Source: Octopus vulgaris (lineage: Eukaryota). Taken from it: a stretch of 64,000 bases of DNA. The position numbers were made by a program, and so were the translations under genes. The stretch is taken from NCBI GenBank assembly GCA_951406725.2, contig OX597831.1:1674001-1738000 (forward strand). Direction: 5' to 3'. Of this stretch, positions 481-58,443 are shown one piece after another (position 1 is the stretch's first letter; every line of letters starts with the position of its first letter). The notes below the pieces were generated by a model. It was not told where the DNA came from, made no database searches, and was given only the letters and a program-made list of their open reading frames with translations.

Positions 481-537
481 CATCTCCGATGAAGGGATAT
501 TATTATTAATTAATATTCTAGAAACAGCTGTATGACC
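481..537 (+). ncRNA. Degenerate minimal hammerhead ribozyme motif in a Penelope-like fragment (~445-610)
   Basis: CCGATGA (486-492), stem II gggatatta/taatattct, GAAA (521-524), palindromic CAGCTG, TA. Stem I is poorly paired. Confidence 0.5.
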
Positions 538-649
538 TTCTATCTATAAATGCTCTAATATCTATACAGCCTTGGTTTTTATCTCATTATGCAAAAAATT
601 CATATAACATGAGTTCATGGCTGTTTCCTGCAACAGCTTCACATAGAAG

Positions 650-1108
650 CCCCAGCCCATCCAAAGTACCTTGGATTGCAAGACAGCCTGCTGTGCTTAC
701 CTTGGATCATAGGGTGACCTGCTGTGCTTGAGGAGACCTATTGAGTCAAGTACATCAACATCAAGAAATCAAATGGAAATTGTAGTAGTGATACCTGTGC
801 CAGTGGCATGTAAAAAGCACCATCCGAACGTGGCCGATGCCGATGCTACCTTGACTGGCTTCCATGCCGGTGGCATGTAAAAAGCACAAACCAATCATGT
901 CCATTGCCAGCCTTCACTGGCACCTGTGCCGGTGGCACGTAAAAAGCACCCACTACACTCACGGAGTGGTTGGTGTTAGGAAGGGCATCCAGCTGTAGAA
1001 ACACTGCCAGATCAGACTGGAGCCTGGTGCAGCCTCCTGGCTTCCCAGGCCCTGGTCGAACTGTCCAACCCATGATAGCATGGAAAACAGACATTAAATG
1101 ATGATGAT
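650..1108 (+). mobile_element. SINE family C (internal GGCACGTAAAAAGCACC subrepeats, (GAT)n tail)
   Basis: GGAAGGGCATCCAGCTGTAGAAAC body, CCCATGxTAGCATGGAAAACAGACATTAAATGATGATGAT tail; >12 homologous copies in the window. Confidence 0.8.
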
Positions 1109-1139
1109 ATACATACTCATATATGCACACACATACATA

Positions 1140-1303
1140 GTACGGTCTTCTTTTAGTTTGTTCTATGAAATCTACTCACAAAACTTTTAATCAGCATGGG
1201 GCTATAGTAAAAGTCACTTGTCCAATGTACCAGACAGTGGGACTGAACTCTCAAAACCATGTGCTTATGAAGCAAACGTCTTGACCACACAGCCAAGCTT
1301 GCA
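1140..1303 (-). mobile_element. SINE family A head, degenerate
   Basis: Similar to the head of the intact copies at 25836 and 39813 (CAGTGGGACTGAAC, ACCACACAGCCA). Confidence 0.65.
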
Positions 1304-1321
1304 CTTTTACCTTAATCTTAA

Positions 1322-1708
1322 CCCTTTTGGGACACCTGGGCCAATATATCAGCCCAAGTGATACTAACTGAAAGGACTTTGAGGCCTATCCATCAGCCTG
1401 ATGAAACAAACGTTGTGAGTGGTTAGTTTTGAAGTGTAATAGCCAATCAGAGAGTGTCTTTCAGTGTATTTTTTGTTTTTTTTTCTACAGAAACATTTAT
1501 GTTTATTATTTTATTTATTTTTATGTATTGTGTTGTTTCAGGTTTTCTTATCCTGATAAAGCTTTCATAATATAGTTTTACATACTGATAAAGTAGTTTT
1601 AGGTACTTTATCCTTCGTTTTCTACATGCACCCATGAATTCCAATCTCAACAGAAAAAAAGTTTGGTCTTTTTGGCCACATACCAAAACACCTTGTATCT
1701 CAAAAGGG
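1322..1708. mobile_element. piggyBac-type MITE
   Basis: TTAA|CCCTTTTGGGAC ... ATCTCAAAAGGG|CTAA: imperfect TIRs starting CCC, TTAA-like target site. Confidence 0.55.
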
Positions 1709-1996
1709 CTAAATAAAGGAAAAGCTCTTTAGATAATGATGTGCACTTATAGTGCTTCAGAATACAGAAAATGTGATTGATGGTCATGGTTAGAACGTCT
1801 TTGATCATTGTGTCTGTTGGATCAGATCAACTGAAGGGGAGAAGGGGTAGGAGGTAGACAACAAAAACAACAATAAAGATCAGAACATTTACTCCCTTTC
1901 ACTCCAAAAACAACAATAACAGAAAAAAAATTGCAGAAGCCTAAATGTCTTGATTTTTGTAGAACCAAGGTGACAAGGTCATATCTTTGGATTTAA

Positions 1997-2368
1997 AATA
2001 ATAATAATAATAATAATAATAATAATTGTGTACAGTGCTCAGGTGCACTACAACTCATCTAAAGTGTATATATAATCAGGTGTAGTTTCGGCGGATTTCG
2101 GAAAGCATGAGGGCCTTAAAAGATGCAGTGTCATGGCAGTCAACAACTGACGCAGGCAGTTTATTCCATGCTTCAGCAACTCTGAGCGTGAAAAAATGTT
2201 TCCGAAAGTCATGGGAGCTGTATTGTTTTCTGACTTTGTAGGCATGTCCACGTGTGTTAGACACATGGAGATCAAAAAGGTGTTCAGTGTTGTTGTTGGT
2301 GAGGTGGTTGATAACTTTGTGGGTGTTTACCAAGTCCCTCGCCAGACGCCAGAGCTTCAGTGACAATT
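1997..2368 (-). mobile_element. CR1-clade LINE, 5'-truncated (ORF2 C-terminus, 3'UTR, (ATT)n tail)
   Basis: ORF 2076..2366: RDLVNTHKVI...TRGHAYKV...RKHFFTLRVAEAWNKLPASVV...SFK, the canonical CR1 ORF2 end. Confidence 0.9.
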
Positions 2369-2384
2369 TTATTGTTGAAATAGT

Positions 2385-2605
2385 GCTGGTAGTAGTAGTT
2401 GTGGTGATGGTAATGGTCAGGTGGTGGTGGTGGTGGTGGTAATTGTAGTAGTGGTAGTGATGGTATTATAATTGTTAAACTAGTTGCAGTAGTGGTAGCA
2501 GATTGGTGTGGTAGTAGCGATGGAAGAGTGGTGGTGGTGATAGTAGTAATGGGAGAGTAGTGGTATTGTCATAGTATTATTTAGTAGTTGTAGCAGTGGT
2601 GGTTG
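2385..2605. repeat. Degenerate (GTA/GTG)n trinucleotide tract
   Basis: Directly visible. Confidence 0.85.
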
Positions 2606-2865
2606 TCTGAAAGCTAAATAAATAAAAAATAAACGAAGAAAATAAACACATAGTCACAAATAAATAAAAAAAAAGAAAAGAAAAAAAGACTTCATATTAT
2701 TAATCCTTCTTTTATGTTAGGTTATTGGCCTAAATTCAGAAATTCTACAACTAATTGTGACCTCCTCATTTGGGACAGAGTGGATAGCAGAGTGGGGGAT
2801 GGGGAGAGGAAAGAAAGCAGCTGGACAGCTTGTCCTTACTTCCTGGGTGGTAGTAATAGTTGTGT

Positions 2866-2899
<34 letters not shown>

Positions 2900-3861
2900 T
2901 TTTTCATTTTATGGCCACAAGAGTGATTGGTTGTGGAGTGGGGACTTTACAAGGACACATAACAAAACAATGTTGGGTAGGGGTAGGTATATGTGGTGGC
3001 GTTTGTTGCATATTGGAGTATGATAGGAAATTGTGATTATATGGAACTGCAACATGGTCAGTCAATATGCTAGAAACAGCAGCCAAGTCCTTGTACTTCT
3101 ACTATCTTAAAGAAGGTTAAAATGAGGATCAAATTTTGATGAGTATGATAAAGAAAGAACACTAGTGAACTTGCAGTCCACAGGACTTTCTAGTGGTTGT
3201 CACATTTTCTTCCATTATTGCCATCTCTAAAGAGTATAGGGTTACATAATTGAGCTGCTATCTAACGTCCTGTTGAACACTCCCCATGTAAAACTAATTG
3301 GTAAGATCACCCATAATAGATGTATAATACTATACACTTTGATTAATATATATATATTACAGGTTTCCAGAGTTTCCCCCACTACCAAATTCTCTACAAA
3401 ATTTACTCATGAAGCATTAACCTGCTTGGAGTCAAAGTAAAAGACACTTTCCTAAGGTGCTATGCAGTGGGATTGAACCTAAAACCATATGATTGCAAAG
3501 CAAGCTTTGTAACCACACTGCCATGCCTGCACCTGACTCTGTAAATAGGGGAAATAAGTATCAGATCAGTTGGGAATATTATCTGTGATGGACATCCTGT
3601 CCATGGAGACGTGTATCTTGCATTTTCTTAAGATGTTAAAATCAAAGCAACTCCTTGACTCATCAGAAGGTGCTTGAGTTGCCATCAGAGGTGTTTAACC
3701 TCTGCACCTCACTATATGATAAGATGTTACGTAAAGAGAACCTCTATGTAGTTATTTTACATACTAGAAATTGTAACCCTGTTCTCTCTTAAGCTACACT
3801 GCATATTATATAACATAATAGCTAAGCATCATATCTATGTAGCTTCTTCCTTCCTAGCATA

Positions 3862-4301
3862 CTAGTATAGCCTGGCGTTGCTCGGGTTTGTTTTTAGTTG
3901 TGCTTAAAACGGCAGACTTTGATGTCACATTAACAAAGTTTTGACATAGTTTCAATCTTTTTTGAAAAGTGAAAATTTTGCATTATGTAGCTTGTTATTC
4001 TCTTTAAGTGAACATTTTTCTAGTTGAAATACACCGAAAAATGGCGACACAGCAGTAAAAAAAATCGTAAAAAATAGGGATTTTCATAGAAAAAAAAAGC
4101 ACCTTTTTGATGTAAATAATTTTTGGTGTTAACATGGTCTGATTTGAATTTTTTTTTCTACGGAATGAAGAGCAAGCCTTCTTCTATCATACTCTCAATT
4201 TTGGTCAACTTGCGCCACGAGGTCTCGGAGGAGATAGTGTTAGTTGAAGGCTATCAAACCTGCCACACACACACAGACAACCTTAGCTTTATATGTATAG
4301 A
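3862..4301 (-). mobile_element. Non-autonomous Helitron (~440 bp)
   Basis: Minus strand reads A|TCTATACATATAAAG...CCCGAGCAACGCCAGG hairpin...CTAG|T: 5' TC, 3' hairpin plus CTAG, A|T insertion site, no TSD. Confidence 0.75.
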
Positions 4302-5254
4302 TTAATTACTGGCAAGGATACTGTATCTTGTTTTGCAGCCATTACATACTACCAAGTGTATTACAGGTTTGCAAGTCAATATTGTGCCTCACTTTGTGTT
4401 AGCAGTGTGATATACTCACTATTAAGTTTATCTCTACAGCTTTTTTATAGAATTCAGTGCTAGCACTGCAAATTAAGTTTCATAAATGAATACGTCTATG
4501 TAAACAATGTAATTGAAGATAAAGAAAATGGGTAATGAGTGTATATGCATATTTCAAGAATTATTTTTCTTTCATCAGTACCACACTACAATTTAAGGAA
4601 AAGTAATATGTCTTTGATCATACAATTTTGTACCTGTTCAGCAAACTGTGAACAACTCTTGTATGATGAACAACTCTGAGTAAGGATGCGTGTATGACGT
4701 CATTCAGTATGCTAGAAACAGCACCCAAATCTCCATCAAATCAAACCCTCTTGTTTTAAATATCTGATGAAGCAGACATATAATCAAAGACCTTCCAGGC
4801 ATGACCATCATGTCTTTTTTTTTTTTCCAATACACAGGGAATCAAAAACCTCATTAATGGGATCTTTTTATTAAGACAGTAAGGTGTTATTGCTTGAGAG
4901 TTAGAGATCTGCTATTTCTAGCAGGTCAAGTGTCCACATATCAGACCCCACGTTGGTTCAACACCTGTATGTTGGCAACATCTGGTTGTTGGTATCGCTG
5001 CTAAATATATTGACGTAATTTTCAGGTAGATTGGATAGACATCATAAATTTAGAGAATTTATATTATTTTGAACATCAAAAGGAGTAACAATATTTCAGC
5101 AAAGGACAGTTCTTCTTTTTCACTGTCCTTTTTTTTTCTTCTTCTTTCAAAGCTAAAACATATATCCCTACCTTACCACCACCACCACCACACTAACACC
5201 ATGAGCTTAGGCTGTGTGGCTTCCTTTCATGTCATTAAGGTTGGTTTGTTTGTT

Positions 5255-5425
5255 TAATCATCATCATTAACAACATCATTGACAGTGTCATCATCATCAT
5301 CATCACCTCTGCTACCATTACTCTCACCACTGCCATCACTATCATCATCATCATCACCATCACTGTCACCTTCACTGCCACCATCACCACCACCACCTCC
5401 TCTGTATTCACTGTCATCACTTCAT
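5255..5425. repeat. Degenerate (CAT/CAC)n tract
   Basis: Directly visible. Confidence 0.85.
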
Positions 5426-5861
5426 ATCCTCCCTCCACCCATCCTCCTTGACATCAATGTTCTAACAACCATCTTTAAGCATCTGTTTATATAACTGTAA
5501 CAAGTAATATGGCTGGAAGAGCAGGGTGGTGAGGAGGGCAGTAAATGGATTAAATTAAGTTGGTTCTCACACTACTTGGTTTTATTTAAGTTTTCTTTTA
5601 TATTTATTTAAAACTATCTTCTTTGAGTTGGGTTCAATTCCCAAACAAGTTCATATACAGACCCTTGATATCTGTATTATCAAAAGGAGGGAAGAGAGGG
5701 TGAGGTAGATAAAGATGAGAAGCCCATTTCATTGTACATAGAATTATTCTCTAAGCGCTTATTTCTTGCCCCATCCCCCACCAAAAAAGAAATACATAGT
5801 GTGATCTTGTAACACAGTGGTTCTCAACATGGATCTCAATAATAATAATAATAATAATAAT

Positions 5862-6181
5862 AGGGAGGCAGTTGTCGGCAACCATGGAGACTGGCGACAT
5901 ACTGTAAGAGAGGGAATATAAAGGAGTGACAGAGAGAGAGAGAGAGGAGAAATGGAAAGACAAGAAAAGACGTCAACAAGAAACTATGGCATTACAACCA
6001 GCCAGGAACAGTCTTCGCTACATTTGCGGTACCTGCCAGAGGGAGTGTTTGTCCAGGATAGGACTACACAGCCACAGCAGGAGATGTATCAGGACATGAA
6101 ATGTAAAAGCCGGACTAGACTACTTTATGCGCAATTCCATTGTCTCCCGAGACAAAAAGGATGCCAACCAATAATAATAAT
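5862..6181 (+). mobile_element. RTE-clade LINE 3' end inserted in an (AAT)n tract
   Basis: Translates EAVVGNHGDWRHTVREG...YICGTCQRECLSRIGLHSHSRRCIRT* (CxxC-R-C-SRIGLxSH zinc knuckle typical of RTE ends). Short 3'UTR, (AAT)n on both sides. Confidence 0.85.
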
Positions 6182-6447
6182 GAAATTATTGTATACAGTG
6201 CTCAGGTGCACCACAACTTGTCAAAAGTGTGTAATAAAGCATATGCAGTAATGTACAAATGTCTTGGAAGTGAACAGTGTACGAGTCAGATGCATGCTTG
6301 TGCATGTATGGAGGGGAGAAAAATCAGGTGTAGTGTTGGCGAATCTCAGGAAGCATGGAAGTTTTGAAGGATGCAGTGCTCTGACAATTAACAACTGATG
6401 CTGGCAGTTTGTTCTATGCTTCAGCAATTCTTAGCAGGAAAAAATGA
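6170..6447 (-). mobile_element. CR1-clade LINE 3' fragment (subfamily related to 1997-2368)
   Basis: Shares CAGTGCTCAGGTGCAC 3'UTR and GGCAGTTTGTTCxATGCTTCAGCAA (AEAWNKLP) with the copy at 1997. Confidence 0.85.
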
Positions 6448-6577
6448 CCCCTGGGGTTCCATATAAGAATTTTTGGGGTCCATACTAGAGGACTTGTAAA
6501 TTAACTTGGAATTTCAATGGAAGGTTTTAATTTAGATTATCCTTTTTGATATCAACCCATTTTTAGGATACAACTTC

Positions 6578-6801
6578 ATAACTCTTTTGTTACCATATTT
6601 CTGTTAAAAGACTCTATCTTTATTTCAATTAACTTTTAAAGCAAGATTTAGTAAAATAACTTTGTTATTATTAAGCTAGTGTTCCTAACACAAATGAACA
6701 TGACATTTTGATGGAAAATTTAATTTGGATTACTCTTAATCAGGAAATTTGCATCATAGAACCAGGGGCAGTATCGGACAGGTTGGTTTCAAAAGGGTTA
6801 A
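6578..6801 (+). mobile_element. piggyBac-type MITE family 1 (~220 bp)
   Basis: ...CTTTTGTTACCATATTTCTG...GGTTGGTTTCAAAAGGG|TTAA; many homologues in the window. Confidence 0.75.
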
Positions 6802-7638
6802 TACAAGAGTATGGAAGATTCAATATCATCTGTCCATTGCTGATTAGATATCACCTTATCTATTCTATATTATGCCATTTATTATCTTTTACTGGCATGC
6901 CATCAGGAAATTTTTCTGACCTTGGGTCATTTAATTTTGGCAGCTATTTAAAATTCTCAAGAGATACGAGTTAAACCAAGGCTCTCTCGAAATTTCATTA
7001 TCTTTCTTTTGATTTGTTTCGTCTTGCAGCCAATAAATTTTAAGTAAGACTCTTCACTATTTTGCTTTCCATTCTAAATTCTGACAGCAATGGTTCTTGT
7101 TATCAGTTGTATTTTATGTTGTTACAAGTTAGCTTTGGGTTACTAATCCTCAGTTAACCCATTAACCCATCGCTAGCATTTTAATGTATTACAAATACTT
7201 TGGTAACCCTTGATAACTTTATTTTATTAATTAATTCTTTCTTTTATTAACCCATTTGTTGCCATATTTCTTATGATGTACTTTGCCTTTTGATAGATCA
7301 CTTCAACTTTTTTTGATAACCGACCAATCTGAGACTGTTCCTGATTCTAAGATACAAACTTCTTAACTCACTTGATACCGTATTTTTGTTGAAATACATT
7401 ACCTTTTGTTTCAATTAATTTCAAAACTAGTTAAGAATTTAGTAAAACACTTTGTTACTGTTAAGGTAGTATTTGGAACATAAATTAACATGAAATTTTG
7501 ATGGGAGGTTTTAATTTAGGCCACTTAACCTTTTAGCATTCAGACTTCTTTGTCAAAGGTATTGCTTATTTATTCATATTGTTTTGGAATTAATTATGCA
7601 TTATCTTGTAGTTTCAAAATTTTTATGATGTAATCTTG

Positions 7639-8016
7639 TTACCTCCGCCTTAACGAAGGTGGAGGTATTCTTTTCAGTTGTGCTCGTTTGCTTGTTTGTC
7701 CACGGACAAGGTATTTCAAGAACTGCTGGATTCAGATGAAACTTTCAGGGCTGTTTGGCCTCATGACTGACAAGAACTGATTAGATTTGGGGATTGATTT
7801 AGTACCAGACAAGGATTCTGGATTATTTTTCCTGCCTTTTTTTTTTTTTTTTTTCACTTAATTTTTGAGAGCAGTCAGGTTCATTTTTAGTATTCTCACT
7901 TGTGAGAGCAGTCAAGTTTATTTCAGACATTCTCATTTTAAAAATCATCTCTGGCTAATCGTTGAGAGGATATTGGTGTTGCCTTGGCGGATGTTTGTGC
8001 TCTCTGACTGCTCGTT
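7639..8016 (+). mobile_element. Helentron-associated non-autonomous element (HINE/DINE-1-like)
   Basis: 5' palindrome ACCTCCGCCTT-aacg-AAGGTGGAGGT, GTTT-type microsatellite, 3' subterminal inverted copy TTGGCGGA plus small terminal hairpin. Confidence 0.65.
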
Positions 8017-8216
8017 ATATTTTGGGATAGTCATTTCGTTAAAAATATTTTTTTTCTGCCAAATAAATATACACTATATATTCATTCTTCACTTCAGATT
8101 CATTATTGTTCGTATTTTATGTCCTTAGTCTGAAAATCTTTCGTCAACACATCGTGTGGCCTCTTCAGCGACTCTCCATCCCATGTGTCTCCTCCTGTTC
8201 TGTTTAGTCCATTCTG
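8014..8216 (-). mobile_element. Short Penelope-like element with hammerhead motif (8127-8173)
   Basis: Minus strand agtcg-CTGAAGA-g..cacac/gtg..ac-GAAA-gattttc-agact; homologous end to end with 36083-36282. Confidence 0.6.
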
Positions 8217-10329: not shown

Positions 10330-10369
<40 letters not shown>

Positions 10370-10859: not shown

Positions 10860-10954
10860 GCTATTTACTCAAACCTAATCCACCTCAGAAATATATATTC
10901 CTCATTTGAACATAAAGATACTTCAGCTCTGATCAATTACTGACTCTCTACAAA

Positions 10955-14016: not shown

Positions 14017-14368
14017 AGTCATTTGACCGTGGCCATGCTGGGTCACTGCCTTGAAGGTATTTTCAGTCAGACAAATCGGCCTGAAGACTTTTTTTTTAAA
14101 CCTTGTACTTATTCTATCAGTCTCTTTTGCCAAACTACTAAGTTATGGGGACATAAACGCACCAACACCTGTTGTCAAGTGGTGATGGGGTACAAACGCA
14201 CACACACACGGCGGGTTTCTTTCAGTTTCCACTACCAAATCTCCTCACACGGCTTTAGTTGGCCTGAGGCTATAATACAAGACACTTACCCAAGGTGCCA
14301 CACAGTGGGACTGAACTCAGAACCATGCAGTTGGCAAGCAAGCTTCTTACCATACATCCACCCTGCAT
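14017..14368 (-). mobile_element. SINE family A
   Basis: Colinear with 25836-26255. Confidence 0.8.
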
Positions 14369-14734
14369 AAAATATTTTCATTAGGTACTTTAGAAGAACT
14401 GGTGTGTGCATGCATTTACACCCTTGTATATTTGTCATATTTGTACTATATATGAATACACTGGTAATTGTAAAAGTATATAACAATGTTTTGTAGGAAT
14501 AAATGGGTTTAAAATTGTATAAATCTCCTCCTCTTTTTTCTCCAAAATATGGCAATTATCTTAATTAACGAAGGAAGAGGAAAAAGAGGCAGGTGGTGCG
14601 ACTGATTTAAGTGAACTGGGTTTTGTGTGGTAGATGTTTATAAGAGCCATGGATCTGTTGAAAATAAGCCATTACAAATGTTACATTGTGTATAGGCTAG
14701 TGTTGAATTCCTCTGCTGATATTATATATTACAT

Positions 14735-14885: not shown

Positions 14886-14918
14886 GAGAGAGCATGATAA
14901 TGAACATATATATATATA

Positions 14919-15100
14919 GTTAATCCAAACATGAAAACACAAAGAGAAAACACAACAATGCGAGGACGTGGAACAAGTATAGTATTATTGGATGCTTAGG
15001 AAAGGAGGGTTTAACGTTTCGAGCGGAGCTCTTCATCAGAAACATAGGAAAAGGAAAGATCCAAAGAAGAGAAGACGGAGGAAAAAATAATCGCCAATGG
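14919..15100 (-). mobile_element. Short Penelope-like/retrozyme-like element abutting (TA)n
   Basis: Homologous to 58198-58408; carries a hammerhead; 3' end ...GGATTAAC joins (TA)n. Confidence 0.75.
15009..15043 (-). ncRNA. Minimal type I hammerhead ribozyme, intact core
   Basis: Minus strand gttt-CTGATGA-a-gagc(tcc)gctc-GAAA-cg-TT-aaac: stems I and II paired, palindromic AACGTT stem III. Confidence 0.8.
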
Positions 15101-15234
15101 TGGGCATCCAGCTGTAGAAACACTGCCAGATCAGACTGGAGCCTGGTGCAGCCCCTGGCTTCCCAGACCCCGGTTGAACCGTCCAACCCGTGCTCGCATG
15201 GAAAACGGATGTTAAACGATGATGATGATGATGA
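15101..15234 (+). mobile_element. SINE C 3' part
   Basis: GGGCATCCAGCTGTAGAAAC...GTTAAACGATGATGATG. Confidence 0.85.
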
Positions 15235-15292
15235 TATATATAGTTGAAATTTACAGGAAAACAAGACAAAGACTGGTGTATGAACAACAAGC

Positions 15293-25835: not shown

Positions 25836-26047
25836 TACTCTTTACTCTTTTACTTGTTTCAGTCATTTGACTGTGGCCATGCTGGAGCACCGCCTTTTAG
25901 TCGAGCAAATCGACCCCGGGACTTATTCTTTTGTAAGCCCAGTACTTATTCTATCGGTCTCTTTTGCCGAACCGCTAAGTGACGGGGACGTAAACACACC
26001 AGCATCGGTTGTCAAGCAATGCTAGGGGGACAAACACAGACACACAA

Positions 26048-26084
<37 letters not shown>

Positions 26085-26255
26085 CATATATACGACAGGC
26101 TTCTTTCAGTTTCCGTCTACCAAATCCACTCACAAGGCATTGGTCGGCCCGGGGCTATAGCAGAAGACACTTGCCCAAGATGCCACGCAGTGGGACTAAA
26201 CCCGGAACCATGTTGTTGGTTAGCAAGCTACTTACCACACAGCCACTCCTGCGCC
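25836..26255 (-). mobile_element. SINE family A, young, full length (tRNA-derived head, CORE-like segment, internal (TA)n(GT)n, (GAGTAAAA)n tail)
   Basis: Sense: GGCGCAGGAGTGGCTGTGTGG (A box) ... GGTTTAGTCCC (B-box position) ... CTTGGGCAAGTGTCTT (CORE-like); near-identical to 39813-40220. Confidence 0.9.
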
Positions 26256-26487
26256 TATAGATCATGTTCTATGCTCTTTAAATTTTTTTTTACTGGTTTC
26301 AGTCATTGAACCAGGGTCATACTGGGGCACCACCTTCATGGATTTTAGTTGATCATAACAAAACCATTATGTACTTCATTCAGTCTCGTGTTTATTTCAT
26401 TGATCTCTATTTGTTAAACCACTAAGGACACAACTTACTAAACAACAGCAATTTTTAGACCAGTGTAATCATAGAGATAAAGAGACA

Positions 26488-32048: not shown

Positions 32049-32090
<42 letters not shown>

Positions 32091-32390
32091 AAACAAGTCA
32101 AGATAGAAAATGCTAAAATAATTTTATAAAGAACATTTCAGTACCGGTTTCAGTCATTTTGAGACCTTTTCAACTGTAACGATTAAATAATTAAATTTAG
32201 AAAAATTAAAAGAAAAGTTTTTTAAAAAGAATATTTGTATAGTGTTCAAATACAAGGGGCATTTTCCTTGTTTCTGCCTTTCTCTGTCTCTCTTGTTTAC
32301 TCTTGTGAGTTCGAGACACACACATCTACGTGTGTGTGTCTTTGTGTCTGTGTTTGTCTCTCATCACTACTTGATAACTAGTATTGTATA
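31890..32390 (+). mobile_element. SINE family A interrupted at its internal (TA)n
   Basis: Head 31890-32050; body resumes GTGTGTCTTTGTGTCTGTGTTTGTC at ~32330. Confidence 0.7.
32086..32330 (-). mobile_element. Penelope-like fragment with variant hammerhead (32139-32176)
   Basis: Minus strand cag-TTGAAAA-ggtc(tcaaaat)gact-GAAA-ccgg-TA-ctg. Confidence 0.55.
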
Positions 32391-35031: not shown

Positions 35032-35870
35032 TATCCATCCCATCCCAGCCGTCTTCTCCGCCTACTATTCCTCGGAGGGTGGTAGGGGCAGTCCTCAGGC
35101 ACCTCGTGATTAAGATCCCATCAGGAGCAACCATCATTGCACTTTCTGGCTGGATTCCCAAGCATGGCCAACTGTGTCTATCTTTTACTTGTTTCAGTCA
35201 TTAGACACTATGGCCATGCTAGGGCACCACCTTGAAGAATTTTAGTTGGACTTATCGACCCCAGTGCTTATTTTTCTTAAGCTTAGTACTTATTCTATCA
35301 GTTTCTATTGACGAATTGCTAAATTACAAGGATGTAAACACACAAACACTGGTTGTTAAGCAATGGTGAGGGACAGACACACTCACACACAATGAGTGTC
35401 TTTCAGTTTCCATCTACCAAATCCATTCGCAAGGCTTTGGTCCACCCAAGGTTATAGTAGAAGACACTTTCCCAAGGTGCCACTCTGTAGGACTGAACCT
35501 GGAACCACATGGTTGGAAAGCAAGCTTCTTACCACACAGCCACACCTGCACCTGTGCCTATCCAACCATTTTATTCTTAGTTTACCCACTGGGTCTCCTA
35601 CCTGTTGGCTCAGCTTAAAGAATCCATCTTGTGATACTTTCCTGTGATTTTCTAATCTTATATCCATAGTACTGGAGCTATGACTCCCAATGTGGAGAAA
35701 TGGAAGTTCATCCTGGAACGACTCCCTGATCTCCAAGTTACACACTCTGTCAAGTAAGGTTTCTCCAGAGATCCTTAAGAGGAACTTCATTTCATTCTCT
35801 TGTTTTTGATGTTGTACATTTTTTGGTCATTACTCAACATCCGTGACCGCAGGTGAGGACAGGTACTAAA
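35032..35870 (-). mobile_element. RTE (Rex3/Expander-like) LINE 3' remnant split by a SINE A (~35180-35560, minus)
   Basis: EMKFLLRISGETLLDRVCNLEIRES..., then SWPCLGIQPE..., with a (GGAT)n tail. Confidence 0.7.
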
Positions 35871-35955: not shown

Positions 35956-36282
35956 ATATTGTTATATTTCAGGATGGTAATTTTTTTTTCTTTTACTTGC
36001 CAAATAAACACATGTGCTATATATTTGTTCTCCACTCATTCATTATTGTTCTTAATTTATCTTCTGTCCATTGTCTGAAAGACAGAATGGACTAAACAGA
36101 ACAGGAGAATATACAAGGATGGAAAAATCGCTGAAGAGGTTACAGATGTGTGACGAAAGATTTCCAGACAATGGACACAGGATAAAATAAGAACAATAAA
36201 AATCAAGTGAAAAACGAATATATAGTGTGTGTATTTATCTGGGATGAAAAAAAAAATGACCGTCCCAAAATATAAATAATAT
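35956..36282 (+). mobile_element. Penelope-like element with inverted partial copy; hammerhead at 36127-36169
   Basis: 35956-36080 is an inverted copy of ~36160-36282; motif CTGAAGA-g-gttaca(gatg)tgtgac-GAAA-gatttc. Confidence 0.7.
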
Positions 36283-36608
36283 CTGTTTCAACACATGGTT
36301 TCACTTCAGGAACCTCAAAGAACAAATTCATGACTATAATTCTTGTAAATAGTTTCATGAGAAGAGGAAGTGCTTGACCATTAGAAATGCTTGTGACCTT
36401 TACGTTCTCTCCACATCTAGTTGGATTGATATGTTTGATGTCTAGTTTGTATATCAGTATATCAGGGTCTGTAGGATGAGAAAATAAAGATGTAGATAAT
36501 CCCAGAGGTGAAGCTAAAACATTGAGTAAAAAGGGTTGGGTTTATTATTGGTTTGAGTAGGGGCTAGGATAGACTAAAACACACTATAGATGATGAGATA
36601 AAATAAAT

Positions 36609-39812: not shown

Positions 39813-40220
39813 ATTCTTTTACTCTTTTACTTGTTTCAGTCATTTGACTGCGGCCATGCTGGAGCACCGCCTTTAGTCGAGCAAATCGACCCTGGGACTT
39901 ATTCTTTGTAAGCCCAGTACTTATTCTATCGGTCTCTTTTGCCGAACCGCTAAGTGACGGGGACGTAAACACACCAGCATCGGTTGTCAAGCAATGCTAG
40001 GGGGACAAACACAGACACGCAAACACACACACACATACATATATATATGCATATATACGACAGGCTTCTTTCAGTTTCCGTCTACCGAATCCACTCACAA
40101 AGCATTGGTCAGCCCGGGGCTATAGTAGAAGACACTTGCCCAAGATGCCACGCAGTGGGACTGAACCCGGAAGCATGTGGTTGGTTAGCAAGCTACTTAC
40201 CACACAGCCACTCCTGCGCC
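39813..40220 (-). mobile_element. SINE family A, young, full length
   Basis: A box TGGCTGTGTGG, B box GGTTCAGTCCC; near-identical to 25836-26255. Confidence 0.9.
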
Positions 40221-40964
40221 TATGGTAAATTTTAAAAAGTATGTATGAGAAGTAAGGGTATTTATTATGTAAATATCAAATATTTGGAAGGAAAGAAAAG
40301 AACCCCTATCTAATGCTATCAAGCATAGAAAAAAAAAATGAAGGCAAAGTAAAAAGAATTCATGCCTTTCAGAGATTAGATAAGTTGAGTTGTGAGTTGG
40401 CTAATATATTACGAACATTTATTGAAGACAGTGAAATGACAGTATTTGTAGGCATTGACCTATATAAATATCTTTACAGTATTTATTTTTTTAACCCTCC
40501 TTGTTTTGGGTTCAAATCCTGCTTGGAATGCTTCTCTTCATTTTGTGCTCCATAGAATAAGAACCCATTACAAATTTGGAGAGTGGGGACTGATTCAGTT
40601 GAAAATTCATGAGTACAAGAGGATTTTACTAGAGGATTTAAGAATACAAAGTAGTTGAATGTTATTGATAAATTGATTACTTTCAACAGCATTTACAGTT
40701 TTACACACATGGTAAGATTTGAACTCAGAATGCAAAGAACCAGAACAAATTCCAATTATACACTGTCTGAAATTGACCTATTTTTGTATTAATCCTAATA
40801 GGATCTTTTTTATTAGGTATTTCTAGAGGCAAAGAGGGATCATGTGTTCATGATCTGCTAGAAATAACAGAAAAATCTCTCTGATATCACAATTTTTCAA
40901 CTTGGAAAAGTAAAAAAAGGAAGAGTGGTGGGCAGCAACATTGGTTTAATATAGGCAAGCATGT

Positions 40965-42723: not shown

Positions 42724-42755
42724 GGCTGTATTTCTAGGATGCTGATCACATGGGA

Positions 42756-44188
42756 GACTCCATCATTGGCTCATCTAAGATGGTGGGGCATATTTTTAGG
42801 GGTACATGGCTGCTATTTCTAGTGCACTTGATGACTACATAAGAGACTCCATCATTGGCTCATCTAAGATAGTGGGGCATATTTTTAGGGGTACATGGCT
42901 GCTATTTCTAGTGCACTTGATGACTACATAAGAGACTCCATCATTGGCTCATCTAAGATAGTGGGGCATATTTTTAGGGGGTACATGGCTGCTATTTCTA
43001 GTGCACTTGATGACTACATAAGAGACTCCATCATTGGCTCATCTAAGATAGTGGGGCATATTTTTAGTGGTACATGGCTGCTATTTCTAGTGCACTTGAT
43101 GACTACATAAGAGACTCCATCATTGGCACATCTAAGATAGTGGGGCATATTTTTAGGGGTACATGGCTGCTATTTCTAGTGCACTTGATGACTACATAAG
43201 AGACTCCATCATTGGCTCATATAAGATAGTGGGGCATATTTTTAGGGGTACATGGCTGCTATTTCTAGTGCACTTGATGACTACATAAGAGACTCCATCA
43301 TTGGCTCATCTAAGATAGTGGGGCATATTTTTAGGGGTACATGGCTGCTATTTCTAGTGCACTTGATGACTACATAAGAGACTCCATCATTGGCTCATCT
43401 AAGATAGTGGGGCATATTTTTAGGGGTACATGGCTGCTATTTCTAGTGCACTTGATGACTACATAAGAGACTCCATCATTGGCTCATCTAAGATAGTGGG
43501 GCATATTTTTAGGGGTACATGGCTGCTATTTCTAGTGCACTTGATGACTACATAAGAGACTCCATCATTGGCTCATCTAAGATAGTGGGGCATATTTTAG
43601 GGGTACATGGCTGCTATTTCTAGTGCACTTGATGACTACATAAGAGACTCCATCATTGGCTCATCTAAGATAGTGGGGCATATTTTTAGGGGTACATGGC
43701 TGCTATTTCTAGTGCACTTGATGACTACATAAGAGACTCCATCATTGGCTCATCTAAGATAGTGGGGCATATTTTTAGGGGTACATGGCTGCTATTTCTA
43801 GTGCACTTGATGACTACATAAGAGACTCCATCATTGGCTCATCTAAGATAGTGGGGCATATTTTTAGGGGTACATGGCTGCTATTTCTAGTGCACTTGAT
43901 GACTACATAAGAGACTCCATCATTGGCTCATCTAAGATAGTGGGGCATATTTTTAGGGGTACATGGCTGCTATTTCTAGTGCACTTGATGACTACATAAG
44001 AGACTCCATCATTGGCTCATCTAAGATAGTGGGGCATATTTTTAGGGGTACATGGCTGCTATTTCTAGTGCACTTGATGACTACATAAGAGACTCCATCA
44101 TTGGCTCATCTAAGATAGTGGGGCATATTTTTAGGGGTACATAACTGCTATTTCTAGTGCACTTGATGACTACATAAGAGACTCCATC
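42756..44188. repeat. Homogeneous tandem array: 16 full 89-bp units plus a partial unit
   Basis: GACTCCATC starts at 42756, 42845, 42934, 43024, 43113 ... 44002, 44091, 44180; only single-base differences. Confidence 0.97.
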
Positions 44189-47726: not shown

Positions 47727-47746
47727 TGTGTATACATTTATCTGTC
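47493..47746. repeat. ~119-bp tandem duplication of microsatellite-rich sequence
   Basis: CTGTCTCCTATTCATACACCCACACACATACACCTATAGAGGT occurs twice. Confidence 0.8.
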
Positions 47747-50503: not shown

Positions 50504-50692
50504 CATTTCACGCTCAGAGTTGCTGAAGCATGGAATAAACTGCTTGCGTCAGTTGTTGACTGCCATGACACTGCATCCTTTAAGGCCCTCATGCTTTCCA
50601 AAATCCGTCGAAACTACACCTGATTATATATGCACTTTAGATGAGTTGTAGTGCACCTGAGCACTGTACACAATGTTTATTATTATTATTAT
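50504..50692 (+). mobile_element. CR1 LINE 3' fragment
   Basis: Reverse complement of ~2000-2195; (TTA)n tail. Confidence 0.9.
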
Positions 50693-51098
50693 CCTGCTGC
50701 CTAAATTTCAACAGAGCTGTGTCTCTTTCAACCTGTTGCAGTTGCCATTCTTCCAGCCTAACACTGTCTCCTCCAGCCTACAACCAGTTTTAGTGCTGTC
50801 TCCTCCAGTTTACAGTCAATTCTACATGTAGTTCCGATCTCCAGGACGTTCCACCTATTTCCTTTATCCTCCAACCATTTCTACCTGTGTCTCCTCCAGT
50901 TTCTGACCAGTTCCTGTTTTCTGTGCCCCATCTCCCAGCCAGTTTGAGCTGTCTTGTCCAACCAGTCCCGGCTGTGCATTCTTTGTCCAGTACCAGCTGT
51001 TATGTCTCTTCTGACTTCTTGTCTGTTTCAGCTGCATGTCTCTTCCATCTTCCATCTCCTTTTAGCTGTGTCTCCTTGAGCCAATCTCAACTGTGTAT

Positions 51099-51350
51099 GT
51101 TAGTTAGTTAGGCTCAAAAGCAAATAGCAAGGCCATGTAGGGGGACATGGAGTTAAGTACAGGGTGGTGTTCATGTATAGAGTTCAGGCCACTTGAGGTC
51201 AAGGGAGGCTTTGAACAAAGTGGTCGTCAGCATCTTCACCATCTCGTCTGGCAGCTTGTTCCACGGATCCGCAACTCGGACGGAGAAAGCTCCTCTCCTT
51301 TGATTGAGATGAAATCGTCGCAGGTAGAGCTTTTCGGAATGAGCTTTTAT
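51099..51350 (-). mobile_element. Second CR1-clade LINE 3' fragment, (TAAC)n tail
   Basis: ORF 51171..51356 AHSEKLYLRRFHLNQRRGAFSVRVADPWNKLPDEMV...FKASLD. Confidence 0.85.
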
Positions 51351-51901
51351 AGCCAATACTGGCTGTGTGTCTTTTCCACTCTCCAGCCAGTTCCAGATGT
51401 GTCCTCAAACTTACAGCCTGTACTAATTGTTTTCTCACTAATCCACACAACCCAGTTCTCAGTGTGCACATTCATAACCTCGCAATTAGTTCTAGCGCTT
51501 GCCCATCCTTCTCTGGTTAAATATTCAACCAGAAAGGGAGAAGGTTGAATATTTAATCAGATTTACCTTATAGGTAACCCATTCCATTAATTTTCCTAGA
51601 GAACAAAAGAAAGTGAAGACAATCAATCTAGTATAAATATATAAAATCTAACCAACTACATATATATATATATGTATATATAAATGCGAAAAAAGGTGTG
51701 TGTGTATATATATATGCCTCTAAATATGTGTTTGAGTGTGTATATATATATGTATATGTGCACATGTATATGTATTTATGCATATGAATATACACCACCT
51801 TAACAGCTATGCCTATCAGGGTGTGTGCTCTACCATAACCAGTTGTAACATGAATCATACAGTTTTAGTCATATGCTCTGAGAAAATTGATACAAAAGGT
51901 G

Positions 51902-51936
<35 letters not shown>

Positions 51937-52249
51937 CATGTGTCTCTCATAATTAAGGTTTACTATAAGACTATATAGGGATACAACAGTCACACAGTCA
52001 ATAGATGTTGAAACAGTCATCTTGGCTTTCATTGTCCTTACACACACACACATTAGCACACATAGCTGTGCAGATAACTAAATGATTTTGGGTTCAATTC
52101 CACTGTGTAGCACTTTGAGCACTTACTACAGCCTTGTGTTGACCAACTGCTTGTGATTGAAATTTAATTTATAAAAACTGTGCTGAATCTCTGTGTATGT
52201 GTTTGTCTATCCACATATATAGATAGATAAAAAAATAGAGAATGAATAA

Positions 52250-52417
52250 GCTGGAGTGGCTGTGTGGTAAGTAGCTTGCTTACAAACCACTTAGTTCTGG
52301 GTTCAGTCCCAATGCGTGGCACTTTGGGCAAGTGTCTTCTACTATAACCTCGGGCTGACCAAAGCCTTGTGAGTTGATTTGGTAGACGGAAACTGAAAGA
52401 AGCCCGTTGTATATATG

Positions 52418-52459
<42 letters not shown>

Positions 52460-52701
52460 CATACATGTGTGTGTGTGTGTGTGTTTGTTTGCCCCCCCCA
52501 CACACACACACATTGGTTGACAACTGATGCTGGTGTGTTTACGTCCCTGTAACTTAGCGGTTCGGCAAAAGAGACCAATAGAATAAGTACTAGGTTTACA
52601 AAGAATAAGTCCTGGGGTCGATTTGTTCGACTATAGGCAGTGCCCCAGCATGGCCACAGTCAAATGACTGAAACAAGTAAAAGAGTAAAGAGTAAAAGAG
52701 T
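52250..52701 (+). mobile_element. SINE family A, full length
   Basis: A/B boxes, CORE-like segment, internal (TA)n(GT)n, AAAAGAGTAAAGAGTAAAAGAGT tail. Confidence 0.9.
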
Positions 52702-53926
52702 CAGCAAAACATATGCCATCACTTAGAAGCATTTAATTTATAATTTAAATATAGTGTAGAGTAGATATAGTAAATAGGTAAGGTCTCTTACAATTGTTTC
52801 TAGAATAGCTAAGCATGTTGCTCTTATATTATTGAGTAAAGATTTCTATGTTGGTTAGGTATTCAGTCATTGAAGGGAAAACGGAATAAGGAATATCCTT
52901 AATCTAGGATATTATTGGTTACCACTGGTGTTGAGAGATTAAGGAGTGTCTAAACTAAATGATGATATTGGTTGGTAGATCCATGATCAAAAGATTAAGG
53001 AGAGGCATAGCAAATGTGAGTGTCAGCAAATTCATTGTTGAAGTGTCACAAAAAAAAATCCCTTGTGAAAATGATAGAAACTTATTTCTAATGATGAAAC
53101 TAGCAACTTCTGTCATTTTTTACTGTGAATTTTCTGTGATAATTCAAAATATAAAAGACTTTTCATTCTATTTTTTCTTTGACTATATTTCAGTGACTGA
53201 AACAAGTAAAAGATTAAAAAAAAAAAAAATGCCAAAAAAAAAGTTGTTTATTTTGTGGGAGTGGGGTGGGGTTTTTACTTTTTACTATTCATAACCAATA
53301 AAACTTAATTACAGTGTTCACCAAATGGGATAAATTTTTCGGTGATTAAGAAAAAAAAAGAAGCTCCAATTAGAAGTCACCTAAAATACACTAAATGACC
53401 AAAAGGGGTTAAAAAAATTAGTTGAAGTGGATGGTAATTAACGGCAATCAAAAATATTGCTACCAATATGATGCAAGCTTATCTAAAGATCAAAATACTC
53501 TGAGTACTAACACAATATAGTTATTTCTATATAGCATATATGTTATATACATATATATGCTAGCATAGCATATACAGTGTGTGTGTGTGTATAGACACAG
53601 GATCGGCTGTGTAGTTAAAAAGCTTGTTTCCCAACCACGTGGTTCTGGTTTTAGTCCTACTTCATCAAACCTTAAACAAGTGTCTTCTACAATAACCCCG
53701 GGCTGACCAAAGCTTTGTGAGTAGATTTAGTAGAAAAGAAACTGAAAGAAGCCCATCATATCAATAATAGTATGAGATTGTAATGATTTTTGGTCAATAA
53801 CTGATGAGGGGTGAGAATGTGCACGTCTTTTGTGTATTTTTTCCATGTGATGACTTTCTGTGAAATCTTTTATTCTTTTATTTATATGTGTGTGCGCGTA
53901 TGTATATATGTGTGTATATATGTGTA

Positions 53927-53991
<65 letters not shown>

Positions 53992-54439
53992 CTTATTCAA
54001 TGAGCAAATCAATAAGTTCATTGGGTGATTGAGTACCCATCATTGAAACTGTTAGAGATTTAACTTGAGATTTACAGGACTCGTTTACTGGAGGTTAACA
54101 TAACTTGTATCTAGGGGCATTGTTGTGTGGTTAAAAAGTCCACTATGCAGTACCTTGGGCAAGTGTCTTCTAATGATAATGGGTCTGACTAAAGTCTTGT
54201 GAGTGAATTTGGTAGGTGCAATTTATTAATCCAATTCTAGTATTACACAGGGTCATAAATCTGGAAGTGATAAGCCAGTTATAATATTCAACTGATAATT
54301 GTTTTATGAACATCCTCTTGCAAATCCTGGTTGAGAGATGAAGAAAATGTAAAGTAGACTCAAGTAGAATTTCAACATAGACTATAAAGAGTTGTACTTG
54401 AGTACTGAATGGTATTTGATCTTATGCTCTACCATAGTT

Positions 54440-55018
54440 GATTACATTGACGTCCCAATGCTTAACTAGTACTTATTTCATTGACCCAGAAAGGACAAAA
54501 GGCAAAGTCAACTTTGGCAGAATTTGAACTCAGAACATAAAGATGAAGAAAATACCACTAAGCCTTTTGTCCAACATGCTAACAGTTTCAGCAATTCCCT
54601 AATTTTTTAAGAATAAGCAATAATTATTCATAATTTTGAGGGGAGGGGGTAAGTTGATTTCATCAACTCCTAGCACTTATTTAATCAATTGTGAAAGGAT
54701 GAAAGGCAGAATTTGAACTCAGAGTGTGAAGAGCTGAAAAAGATGCTGCTAAGCATTTTGTCCTATGTACTAACAATTCTGCCAGCACAACACCTGAGTA
54801 ATAATAATAATAATAATGGTTTCAAATTTTGGCATAAGGTCAGCAATTTCGGGAGAAAGGGCTCATTGATTATATCAACTCCAGTACTCAACTTGTACTT
54901 AATTTATCGACCCTGAAAGGATGAAATGCAAAGTCGACCGCAGTGGAATTTGAATGTAAAGCTGGATGAAATGCCACTAAACCTAGCATGCTATCAATTC
55001 TGATAGCTTGCCACCTTA
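54440..55018 (-). mobile_element. Cluster of three same-orientation old SINE B copies
   Basis: GAAAGGA..AAAGGCA...AATTTGAACTCAG motif three times. Confidence 0.7.
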
Positions 55019-55599
55019 ATAATAATAATAATTATTATTATTATTATTATTATTATTTAACAATAAATATTTACATATGGAAAATTGCAGTTGAACCTTG
55101 CAAAAACTGTGTCATTATCATCATCAGCATCATTATCAACAACATCATTACAACCAGCATTATATGCTCTTTTCCTCTGCTTAAGAAATTGCAGTCTATT
55201 TTATGATAATTGACACAATGGAATGAAACAAGAAACTAACTAACTAGGCTTAATTATCGACAACTAATGAGTACAAACTGGGCTGATATCCTGGTTCTGT
55301 TAACTAGGTGGCGCTTGTAATTCATACTTTGTGTGGAAGAAAGGATGACATTAAATACTGCGGCTCTTTAGATAAAATAAAAGAGAATTAGTAATAAGTT
55401 TGCTTAGCAACAGAAACACAGGCTGGACATGTTTCTACACAGCTATTGATGAAGGAGAGATGAAAGCTTCCATGATGGAGATTACATGTGTGTGTACATA
55501 CATACACACACAATCATGTATATACTCAGATATATATAATATACACATGTGAAGATGTGTGCATGTAAGCATGAGAATGTGTGTGAGGTGTGCTAAAGC

Positions 55600-55630
<31 letters not shown>

Positions 55631-56035
55631 CTCTTTTACTATTTTATTTGTTTCAGTCATTTGACTGTTGCCATGCTGGAGCACCGCCTTTAGTCAGGCT
55701 AATCGACCCCCAGGACTTATTCTTTGTAAGCCTAGTATTTATTCTATCGGTCTCTTTTGCTGCACTCTGTAAATGGATTTCGTACTTGATTTTGAAAGAA
55801 TTTAAGATATGAGAGGACAGGAAGTTGAGGAAAGAGTGGAGTAGAGGTACAAGAGAGCTGAGTGAAGCTGGATGACTGAGTGGAGTAAAAAGTGGACAAG
55901 TAGATCTGAGGTGGAGCTGAGATAGATGCTGGAGTAGAGCTGGGATTTTAATATGATTAGTATCTTTGTACAGGATTCCTTTTAGCTTTGTCTGGTTGTT
56001 GCCATTGTTATTGTTTAACCTCAGGTAATTCTTCA

Positions 56036-56301
56036 GTGGTGGAGGTGTGTGGCTTCTTGGTTAGGGTGTCAGCATCATGATCGTAAGATTGTGGTTTCGA
56101 TTCCTGGACTGGGGCAACGCGTTGTGTTCTTGAGCAAAGCACTTCATTTCACTTTGCTCCAGTCCACTCAGCTGGCAAAAATGAGTAACGCTGCGATGGA
56201 CCGACGTCCCATCCAGCTGGGGAACACATACGCCATTGAAACTGGGAAACCGGGCCCATGAGCCTGGCTAGGCTTTAAAAGGGCGCATTTATTATTATTA
56301 T
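56036..56301 (+). mobile_element. SINE family D, full length (tRNA-derived head, CORE-like TTGAGCAAAGCACTT)
   Basis: A box TGGCTTCTTGG, B box GTTTCGATTCC, (TTA)n tail, 10-bp TSD TAATTCTTCA (56026-56035, 56302-56311). Confidence 0.85.
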
Positions 56302-57056
56302 TAATTCTTCATTGAATAGACGTATTTATACATCACCCACAATGTCCTTCCTTTTTCCCAGATGCTAGTTACAGTGGAATATGAAAGACTGGATTGCTAT
56401 TTCTAGCAGATTGATCAAGCACATAGAAACTTCCATGTTGGCTCATTGAGGCTTAGTCATTCCAGCTGGCACAGCATGGGGCGTAGGTACATTGCAAGAT
56501 TATTGTTGTGAGGATGGTCTTGTTTAATCAGTTAATTAGAATCTCTTTTCAATTCTTCAGAGAATAAGCGATGTGTTGTTTCCTCCTTAATTACCAGCTG
56601 TATCTAATTAACTTGTATTTTAGTCATCTCCAGTAATGGAGAATGGAGAATTATGTTCATCAGGCTGACAGACCTATTGTTTGGTTTTGTTTTCTTTATA
56701 AGGAAATTTCTTTCAACTTTCATTCTCTGTTATCCTTCACCTGAAATCTCTTTCTTTCATGCACTCACATACACACACCTATCCACAAGTATTCATTCAC
56801 TCTCATCTGCTGACTGACCTCTCTATTTCACTCTCTCCTCATTGCTTCTTATTCTCTTTCCACTCCTCTCTTTGATATATATATATATATATCAACGTGT
56901 TATCTTATGGACACAAAGAGTTTACCATTAAACTGAAGGATTACTCAATACATTTAAATCGAGTATGTTTCTTAGACTTTTTTCAAGGAAAAGAATAGCA
57001 GTAATTTCAAAGTTGTGACTTACTCACCTTTACCATGTATGGATGGATGGATGCAT

Positions 57057-57166
57057 GCATAATACGCTTACATACATATGCCCAGATATACATAGATAAT
57101 TGATACCGGTAGTAAAATGGATATTATTATCCCTTAGACAGTTATTCCAACCACTAACTCTACTAA

Positions 57167-57226
<60 letters not shown>

Positions 57227-57330
57227 TAGAGTTAGTGGTTGGAATAACCATCTAATGGATAAGAATTGTTTTACTACCAGTATAAATTATCTATGTTAAC
57301 CCTGGGCATACATATGTAAGCATATTATGC
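57057..57330. repeat. ~110-bp inverted arms flanking (TA)n
   Basis: 57057-57166 is the reverse complement of 57223-57330 with scattered mismatches. Confidence 0.9.
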
Positions 57331-57401
57331 TCATAGGATACAGACAATAACAAAGATAACAAGAGTTTATCAGGAATCAAATTTCATATATATGTATATA
57401 T

Positions 57402-57730
57402 GTAGTGAGAATTTACAAAAAAAAAAACAAAAGACAAAGACAGGTGTGTAAACAACAAACAGATGTATTAGTTTAATGCTCGGGAAGTGAGAAAGTCTTT
57501 TACGTTTCGAGCCTACGCACTTCGACAGAAAGGAACACAGAAATAAACAGGGAGAGAAAATAGAAAGATTTAGTGGCTAGTGATCTATCAAGGCAAATAC
57601 CGGACAGAGGGGTCACACAGGAGAGCTAGGAAGAAGGGGAGATAATAAAGTAATGGTGATCCCAAAACGAAGGTGTGCATGCATGTGTATGTGCATGTGG
57701 AAGGGGGCTGGTGACCTTGACATGTGCTTG
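57402..57730 (-). mobile_element. Penelope-like fragment with variant hammerhead (57497-57532)
   Basis: Minus strand cttt-CTGTCGA-a-gtgc(gtag)gctc-GAAA-cg-TA-aaag; related 3' stub at 15241-15293. Confidence 0.65.
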
Positions 57731-57969
57731 TGTATACATGTATATATTTATAAGTGTATATGTGTGTGTTTGTTGCAGTCCTTTATACAGTATGTCTGCA
57801 TGTGCACATTTTTGTGTGTATGTATCTATGTAGTGGTCTTTTGTCTGTTGTTGCTTATCCCAGATCAGCCCTGATCCTTCAGAAACCCATATTCACAGGC
57901 ATTTCCAGCTAAGACTTTTCTTTTATTTATCTACAGCTATATTATCCAGTGTGTCCTTTATTTCCTGTT

Positions 57970-58158
57970 TTAACCCTTTAGCATTCAGATTTCTTTGTCA
58001 AATATGACTCTTTTACTTGTTTCAATCATTTGACTGTGGCCATGCTGGAGCACCACCTTTAGTCGAGCAAATCGACCCCAGGACTTATTCTTTGTAAGCC
58101 TAGTACTTATTCTATCGGTCTCAAGCAATGTTGGGGGGACAAATACAGGCACACAAAC

Positions 58159-58202
<44 letters not shown>

Positions 58203-58405
58203 GTGACCTTGTGTGTACCGTTGGCGATTTTTTTTTCCTCTGTCTTCCCTTCTCTGGATCTTTCCTTCTCCTATGTTTCCGACGAAGAGCTCTGCTCGAA
58301 ACGTTAAACCCTCCTTCTTTCCTTCTTTCCTGAGCGTCCAATAATACTATATTTGTTCCACGTCCTCGCGTTGTTGTGTTTTTTTGTGCTTTCTTGTTTG
58401 GATTA

Positions 58406-58443
<38 letters not shown>

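Follow-up and report, generated by a model that had tools for sequence, protein, structure and literature searches.

Minimal type I hammerheads have already been described in the pseudo-long terminal repeats (pLTRs) of metazoan Penelope-like elements, where most occur in solitary truncated copies (Cervera and De la Pena 2014, PMC4209133) and where helix III of the minimal motif cannot form in the monomer. Some known pLTRs measure about 200 bp and carry an initiator and a 5' palindrome (PMC3846280), and Penelope pLTRs contain a promoter (PMC2377424, PMC3846280). Among the endonuclease-bearing (EN+) Penelope-like elements, a CxCX5C linker defines the Hydra clade (PMC8557442). For Poseidon of Anolis it has been shown in vitro that AT-rich DNA is nicked, that two sites within the RNA, which bound the tail, serve as starts of reverse transcription, and that hammerhead mutants leave insertion unaffected (Frangieh et al. 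2024, PMC11167929). Thirty recently active Penelope families have been reported from an octopus in a publication that does not use the word hammerhead in the portion compared here (PMC13282606). The present analysis concerns a stretch of 64,000 nucleotides of Octopus vulgaris contig OX597831.1 (the window), which is AT-rich animal repeat DNA from a genome of 2.8 Gb, and seven hammerhead-like motifs within it. The seven repeat units carrying these motifs are very probably the 5'-truncated pLTR 3' ends of five Penelope-like families, all of which have longer copies coding for a GIY-YIG endonuclease and, in four cases, for a reverse transcriptase (RT) as well, and the motif in each unit is a predicted minimal hammerhead.

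An initial annotation, made from the letters of the window alone, had listed the seven motifs and grouped them into about five families. All seven read as described, in position, strand, and type I order, and they sort into exactly five repeat families, designated A to E (Table 1), with window units of approximately 175 to 330 nt that agree with the 150 to 330 bp first given. The same annotation described the elements as lacking open reading frames (ORFs) and as separate non-autonomous ribozyme retroposon families. The former is true of the window copies but not of their families, in which longer copies are coding, and the latter did not stand, as following the longest copies upstream reached a GIY-YIG endonuclease frame in every one of the five families and, in four, a reverse transcriptase frame as well.

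The link to coding parents takes a somewhat different form in each family (L numbers denote the loci compared). In family A, L213 and L214 align over 3,138 columns (81.7%), spanning RT, endonuclease, a 1.6-kb 3' untranslated region (UTR), and the unit. In family D, L151 and L152 contain RT, GIY-YIG, and a short 3' UTR in continuity with the unit, and the partial tandem L162 contains endonuclease and unit followed by the start of the next ORF. The family C endonuclease leads into the unit in L156 and L157, and L213 holds an RT piece, the endonuclease, and the unit in that order. Family E copies L215 to L217 share 2.4 to 2.7 kb in which an RT frame is accompanied by an endonuclease whose linker is CxCX5C (seen in L216), and the 3' unit of this family returned 2,864 first-look candidates, compared with 56 for the stretch 1 kb upstream. 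Such candidate counts (A, 652; B, 3,155; C, 2,997; D, 4,932; E, 2,864; 40 scored and 30 fetched per family) are not copy numbers and served only for this gradient. Family B is an older lineage of Penelope-like element, with 76 to 88% identity among its best matches; its unit lies downstream and on the same strand in 23 of 30 loci found by the upstream stretch, and an endonuclease profile built from six sequences of other families matches 26 of 30 family B loci, against 0 of 30 for the reversed control. A CX2-5CxxC linker precedes GIY-YIG in families A, B, C, and D. Families A, C, and D are provisionally classed as Neptune-type, the linker by itself fitting either the Neptune or the Nematis clade, and family E appears to be Hydra-type, judging from its linker and from the likeness of its RT and endonuclease by eye.

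Besides this continuity with coding copies, several hallmarks of insertion can be read directly from the copies. The 3' end is fixed and the 5' end is variable in all five families. Among copies not picked for this property, a TA run stands at the 3' end in 18/19 of family A, 29/32 of family D, 4/4 of family C, and 3/4 of family E, compared with 9.7% of random places. Microsatellite targeting, as first proposed, is thus clear for A, C, D, and E but not for B, which is seldom found directly at (TA)n. In the window itself, where most units had been described as fused to (TA)n, this holds at the 3' end for both family A units and for C, and for D as a short TA-rich run; E has its tract on the 5' side only, and neither family B unit has one. 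Optional tails are present in families C (15/30), E (7/30), and B (5/30), and no common tail was seen in family A. Inverted 5' copies occur in B (24/30), C (7/30), and E (3/30), and the window family B copy at 36077 bears both an optional tail and an inverted 5' copy. No convincing target-site duplication was found at the seven window places, where the TA context masks them. At the pLTR 3' border, the sequence of C, D, and E copies continues across a short AU repeat, which could pair with a (TA)n target.

A number of points weigh against the assignment to truncated Penelope-like ends. Pfam GIY-YIG scores of A (6.3e-4) and E (2.7e-3) fall under the curated cut-off, which is exceeded by C (4.6e-6). 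The RT pieces of A, D, and E that were tested had no Pfam match, their identity coming from motifs and from tblastn to the ORF of a neighboring family, and the RT and endonuclease of E were in addition compared by eye with a published alignment. The RT link of family B is a weak match (E value of 0.001). Broken or truncated frames, and no intact full-length ORF, were found among the recovered copies of A to E in a search that was not exhaustive. Family B is rarely located directly at (TA)n, with 0 of 2 unpicked copies and with a TA run within 25 nt of the end in 4/30 and within 105 nt in 15/30 (24% background), distances measured from an anchor placed about 25 nt short of the true end. Finally, family A has a sharp 5' boundary unlike what plain truncation would be expected to give.

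Further Penelope-like sequences were observed at the loci compared. A sixth Penelope family, F, lies outside the window (L159, 4435-6519, minus strand; L153, 4426-5963; L392); an RT-endonuclease stretch of 695 residues in it is free of stops, and its hammerhead combines a U3-A8 pair with a very short helix II. A Hydra-1_Obim-like element occupies L248 5000-6540, just downstream of a family B end. Different Penelope families often sit side by side in shared TA tracts (also in L015, L153, L160, L161, and L213).

The family A boundary was determined with 71 copies selected solely by the hammerhead pattern, every one of them within the first 18 Mb of a single contig. Eight of these belong to a divergent subfamily whose 5' ends were not placed. 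Measured from the 3' end, the remaining 63 comprise 15 that end before 198 nt, 42 that end at 198 to 217 nt (two of them assigned after reading the flanks), and 6 that extend beyond, so that 42 of the 48 copies reaching 198 nt stop within this zone. The rate of loss before the zone predicts 7% ending there. What the annotation had named as the finding that would remove its novelty, random truncation of autonomous Penelope elements, is essentially what the units are, except that family A 5' ends are not random; and because these ends pile up at one boundary, short family A copies may have been re-mobilized. At the boundary, TCATTC, which we take to be initiator-like, is located inside a 7-bp hairpin adjoining an AT-rich patch. 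Possible causes of the boundary are a transcription start, stalling of RT, or microhomology with (TA)n. The 5' ends of C, D, and E are more spread, and an apparent pile-up of family D 5' ends at 153 to 156 nt was discarded as an artifact, which arises because subfamilies have diverged from the reference copy. The family A unit is covered by contigs from four presumed RNA runs, in which no joint is listed; contigs of this kind cannot show ends, strand, or circles.

It might be argued from this boundary that solo pLTRs are non-autonomous elements resembling short interspersed elements (SINEs), in which short copies that retain the promoter are transcribed and copied in trans by the parent protein, many 200-nt copies thus descending from short copies. 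The excess of ends in the zone over the prediction from the earlier loss rate would be accommodated, as would the position of the presumed initiator at the boundary. It would also fit with the presence of a promoter in Penelope pLTRs (PMC2377424, PMC3846280) and with the finding that rotifer pLTR sequences are enough for mobilization in trans (PMC3846280). However, the family A ends are spread over 20 nt rather than forming a fixed 5' end, short copies are mixed with long ones in a tree of low resolution, and the subfamily of the window copy at 58198 includes a long member (L341, at least 696 nt, 1 of 30) that has itself lost the initiator-like A. A parent transcript starting at the boundary predicts the identical pattern, and the wider spread of 5' ends in C, D, and E also argues against a general SINE-like origin, which on balance is distinctly unlikely.

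Multiplication as animal non-LTR retrozymes, that is, as tandem units with canonical hammerheads copied through circular RNA, would account for the similar unit size (150 to 450 bp) and the type I hammerheads (PMC7229834), and a 2026 preprint derives such retrozymes from pLTRs and mentions monomers (bioRxiv 10.64898/2026.07.22.740005). No head-to-tail tandem array is present at the seven window places, however, and none was flagged in 30 copies of A or in 30 copies of D; there are a few dimers interrupted by TA runs (L012 and L021). The hammerheads are minimal, and copy ends do not coincide with the cut site, making a retrozyme origin highly unlikely.

The evidence that the motifs are hammerheads sits at the level of the family, and single copies are weak. 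A strict descriptor has three matches in the window, two of the seven motifs and an unrelated one at 4578, versus 0 to 1 in 10 shuffles; the match at 4578 (minus strand) is treated as chance, having no relative among the loci compared. Relaxed descriptors in the window are not clearly above shuffles (4 versus 0 to 4 and 28 versus 16 to 34). No hammerhead family is among the 150 of 154 Rfam matches listed for the window, which are microsatellite-driven microRNA look-alikes, and folding of the monomers is unremarkable (z-scores of -1.85 to +0.62). The descriptor and folding tests have low power for motifs so small, and a weak single-copy signal is expected because helix III of minimal hammerheads is unable to form in a monomer.

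At the family level, exact patterns over the hammerhead have 11,312 (A) and 15,782 (D) matches in the genome, and the reversed patterns have none. The outer helix I pair is swapped between A and D, being GTTT/AAAC in 71 and CTTT/AAAG in 54 of 178 distinct contexts, and the helix II stem is retained between the two families despite differing loops. Family C shows the double change from C3-G8 to U3-A8 in 34/35. The core, GAAA, UH, and the three helices in type I order are retained across copies, with family-wide departures at position 4 (A and E) or 6 (D). The annotated CUGAnGA-like core holds as the canonical family majority in B only, the majority being CCGAnGA in A and E, CUGUnGA in D, and UUGAAAA in C; the CUGAUGA core of the family A copy at 15009 probably represents CpG decay from the family state CCGACGA. 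The window copies of E and D have helix mismatches relative to their family majority, including two broken helix I pairs in the former. This conservation, together with the parent link, supports the Penelope-type minimal type I hammerheads that had been proposed, and the motifs of A to E are predicted from sequence to self-cleave. That they are chance look-alikes in AT-rich repeats, as the performance of relaxed descriptors against shuffles, the Rfam matches listed, and the ordinary folding energies might suggest, is hardly credible given that five families with unrelated flanks all have the motif just inside the Penelope-like 3' end, its known place, and show paired changes in helix I and at positions 3 and 8. 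At least three further hammerhead-like repeat clusters of 3 to 5 copies each were noted, one with the core UUGAUAA and one with an extended helix III.

Two of the core departures are family standards. U4C characterizes A and E; in family D, 96 of the first 100 matches carry U in place of A at position 6, and all four letters are found at position 7. U4C and A6C are natural hammerhead variants with low activity in magnesium (PMC3088659, PMC7151607). No report of an A6U variant was found in the literature compared; a study of small hammerhead variants cited in PMC6765202 (Lunse et al. 2017) may list U4C or A6U.

The observations can be combined into a proposed mechanism for the Penelope-like ends. 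The endonuclease would nick a (TA)n tract, and reverse transcription would begin inside the element RNA at the pLTR 3' border, a second start further on giving rise to the tail. Most cDNAs would end after about 200 nt, the stop in family A likely being the RNA 5' end at a pLTR-internal promoter or a stall at the hairpin. The cDNA would then be rejoined to the TA tract, sometimes after folding back, which would produce an inverted copy. The hammerheads may cut weakly, either only as dimers or with help from protein, and cutting is likely dispensable for insertion; this would explain how the weakened cores U4C and A6U could become family standards. A more elaborate version is rather unlikely, though it deserves mention: a SINE-like pLTR side cycle, in which RNA started internally and copied to its 5' end yields re-copyable, promoter-bearing units of 210 nt, combined with a lineage D fold in which U6 has been kept through several waves of tens of thousands of copies for a role other than fast magnesium-driven cutting. 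Short TA-embedded repeats, of which the genome has tens of thousands, can be annotated as the ends of Penelope-like elements from at least two clades and not as new retrozymes. The A6U core and the sharp 5' boundary bear on the function of the Penelope hammerhead, on whether its cutting matters, and on the starting point of the RNA template.

The density of one element per 9 kb first suggested from the window is too high for the genome. Sixty preset, evenly spaced places totaling 599.8 kb contain 20 copies of families A to E that extend over the hammerhead (A, 7; B, 0; C, 2; D, 10; E, 1), or one per 30 kb. The window, with seven copies, has approximately three times the sampled density (Poisson P of 0.006, a significance inflated by the definition of the families from the window).

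Table 1. Penelope-like units and predicted hammerheads in the window
Feature	Position	Strand	Remarks
Family E unit, 5'-truncated 3' end (pLTR) of putative Hydra-type Penelope-like element	430..606	+	(TA)n on 5' side; parent RT and endonuclease in L215-L217
Family E minimal type I hammerhead	481..537	+	Core CCGAUGA (U4C); long AU-rich helix II; palindromic helix III; predicted cut after UA
Family B unit, old decayed pLTR stub	8030..8216	-	No (TA)n tract
Family B hammerhead	8127..8173	-	Core CUGAAGA; helix II decayed in this copy
Family A unit, pLTR stub of provisionally Neptune-type element	14918..15101	-	Terminates in (TA)n
Family A hammerhead	15009..15043	-	Core of this copy CUGAUGA; predicted cut after GUU
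49-nt 3' stub, D-related subfamily	15244..15292	-	Flanked by TA runs; shorter than needed for the hammerhead
Family C unit, young pLTR stub	32088..32315	-	97-98% identity to best other copies; (TA)n 32052-32086 at end; parent endonuclease in L156, L157, RT piece and endonuclease in L213
Family C hammerhead	32139..32176	-	Core UUGAAAA (U3-A8 pair); palindromic helix III; predicted cut after GUA
Family B inverted partial copy	35960..36080	-	Head to head with 5' end of the 36077 copy
Family B unit, pLTR stub with optional tail	36077..36330	+	No (TA)n tract; endonuclease remnant upstream in longer copies
Family B hammerhead	36127..36169	+	Core CUGAAGA; 6-bp helix II; near-palindromic helix III; weak helix I
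Family D unit, pLTR and little 3' UTR of provisionally Neptune-type element	57405..57733	-	TA-rich run at end; parent RT and endonuclease in L151, L152; partial tandem in L162
Family D hammerhead	57497..57532	-	Core CUGUCGA (A6U, family state); one helix II mismatch in this copy
Family A unit, 210-nt pLTR stub	58198..58408	+	Inside (TA)n tract; 5' end within family A boundary zone; parent RT and endonuclease in L213, L214
Family A hammerhead	58275..58309	+	Core CCGACGA (U4C); extra A before helix II; palindromic helix III

Other repeats share the window with these units. SINE-like repeats with central TA or CA tracts are abundant (14154-14373, 26039-26258, 35336-35555, 40004-40223, 58388-58607, and others), and the family A copy at 58198 sits in the central tract of one of them. 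At 57083-57303, two copies of another short repeat, 83% alike, are arranged tail to tail across (TA)27 and form a long hairpin; a further copy with TA at its end is present in L448, no hammerhead was identified in this repeat, and it is probably the 3' end of another TA-targeting retroelement. At 42754-44188, a unit of 89 nt is repeated in tandem, giving 16 copies that are 99% alike.

The closest known counterparts of the motifs are the minimal hammerheads of metazoan Penelope pLTRs (PMC4209133), which are likewise of type I with a short helix I and a palindromic helix III. They share the additional nucleotide found after position 9 and before 10.1 (seen here in A, B, D, and E) and the U3-A8 variant (C), and they too occur as several sequence families per genome, mostly as single motifs from truncated elements. 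The family-wide U4C of A and E and A6U of D are not named in the portion of the main text of that study used for the comparison. The EN+ Penelope-like elements of the Neptune and Hydra clades (Craig et al. 2021, PMC8557442) have the same C-terminal GIY-YIG with a CX2-5CxxC (A to D) or CxCX5C (E) linker, and the same heavy 5' truncation, partial tandems, inverted 5' copies, optional tail, and preference for (TA)n. Comparison with part of its supplement recovered none of the short motifs from A/D, C, and E. Hydra-1_Obim differs from family E in having a different hammerhead, and E is approximately 43% identical to the element in L248, which is Hydra-1_Obim-like by eye. With Poseidon (PMC11167929), the families described here would share reverse transcription that begins internally, a tail produced by two start sites, AT-rich targets, and insertion that does not need hammerhead cleavage, as seen for Poseidon in vitro; the start site of Poseidon is without homology to the target, whereas the AU repeat of C, D, and E might pair with (TA)n. 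Animal non-LTR retrozymes have the same unit size, a type I hammerhead, and a proposed origin from pLTRs (PMC7229834; bioRxiv 10.64898/2026.07.22.740005). In contrast to retrozymes, which are tandem, have mostly canonical hammerheads, and have been shown to form circles, the octopus units are dispersed monomers continuous with coding parents.

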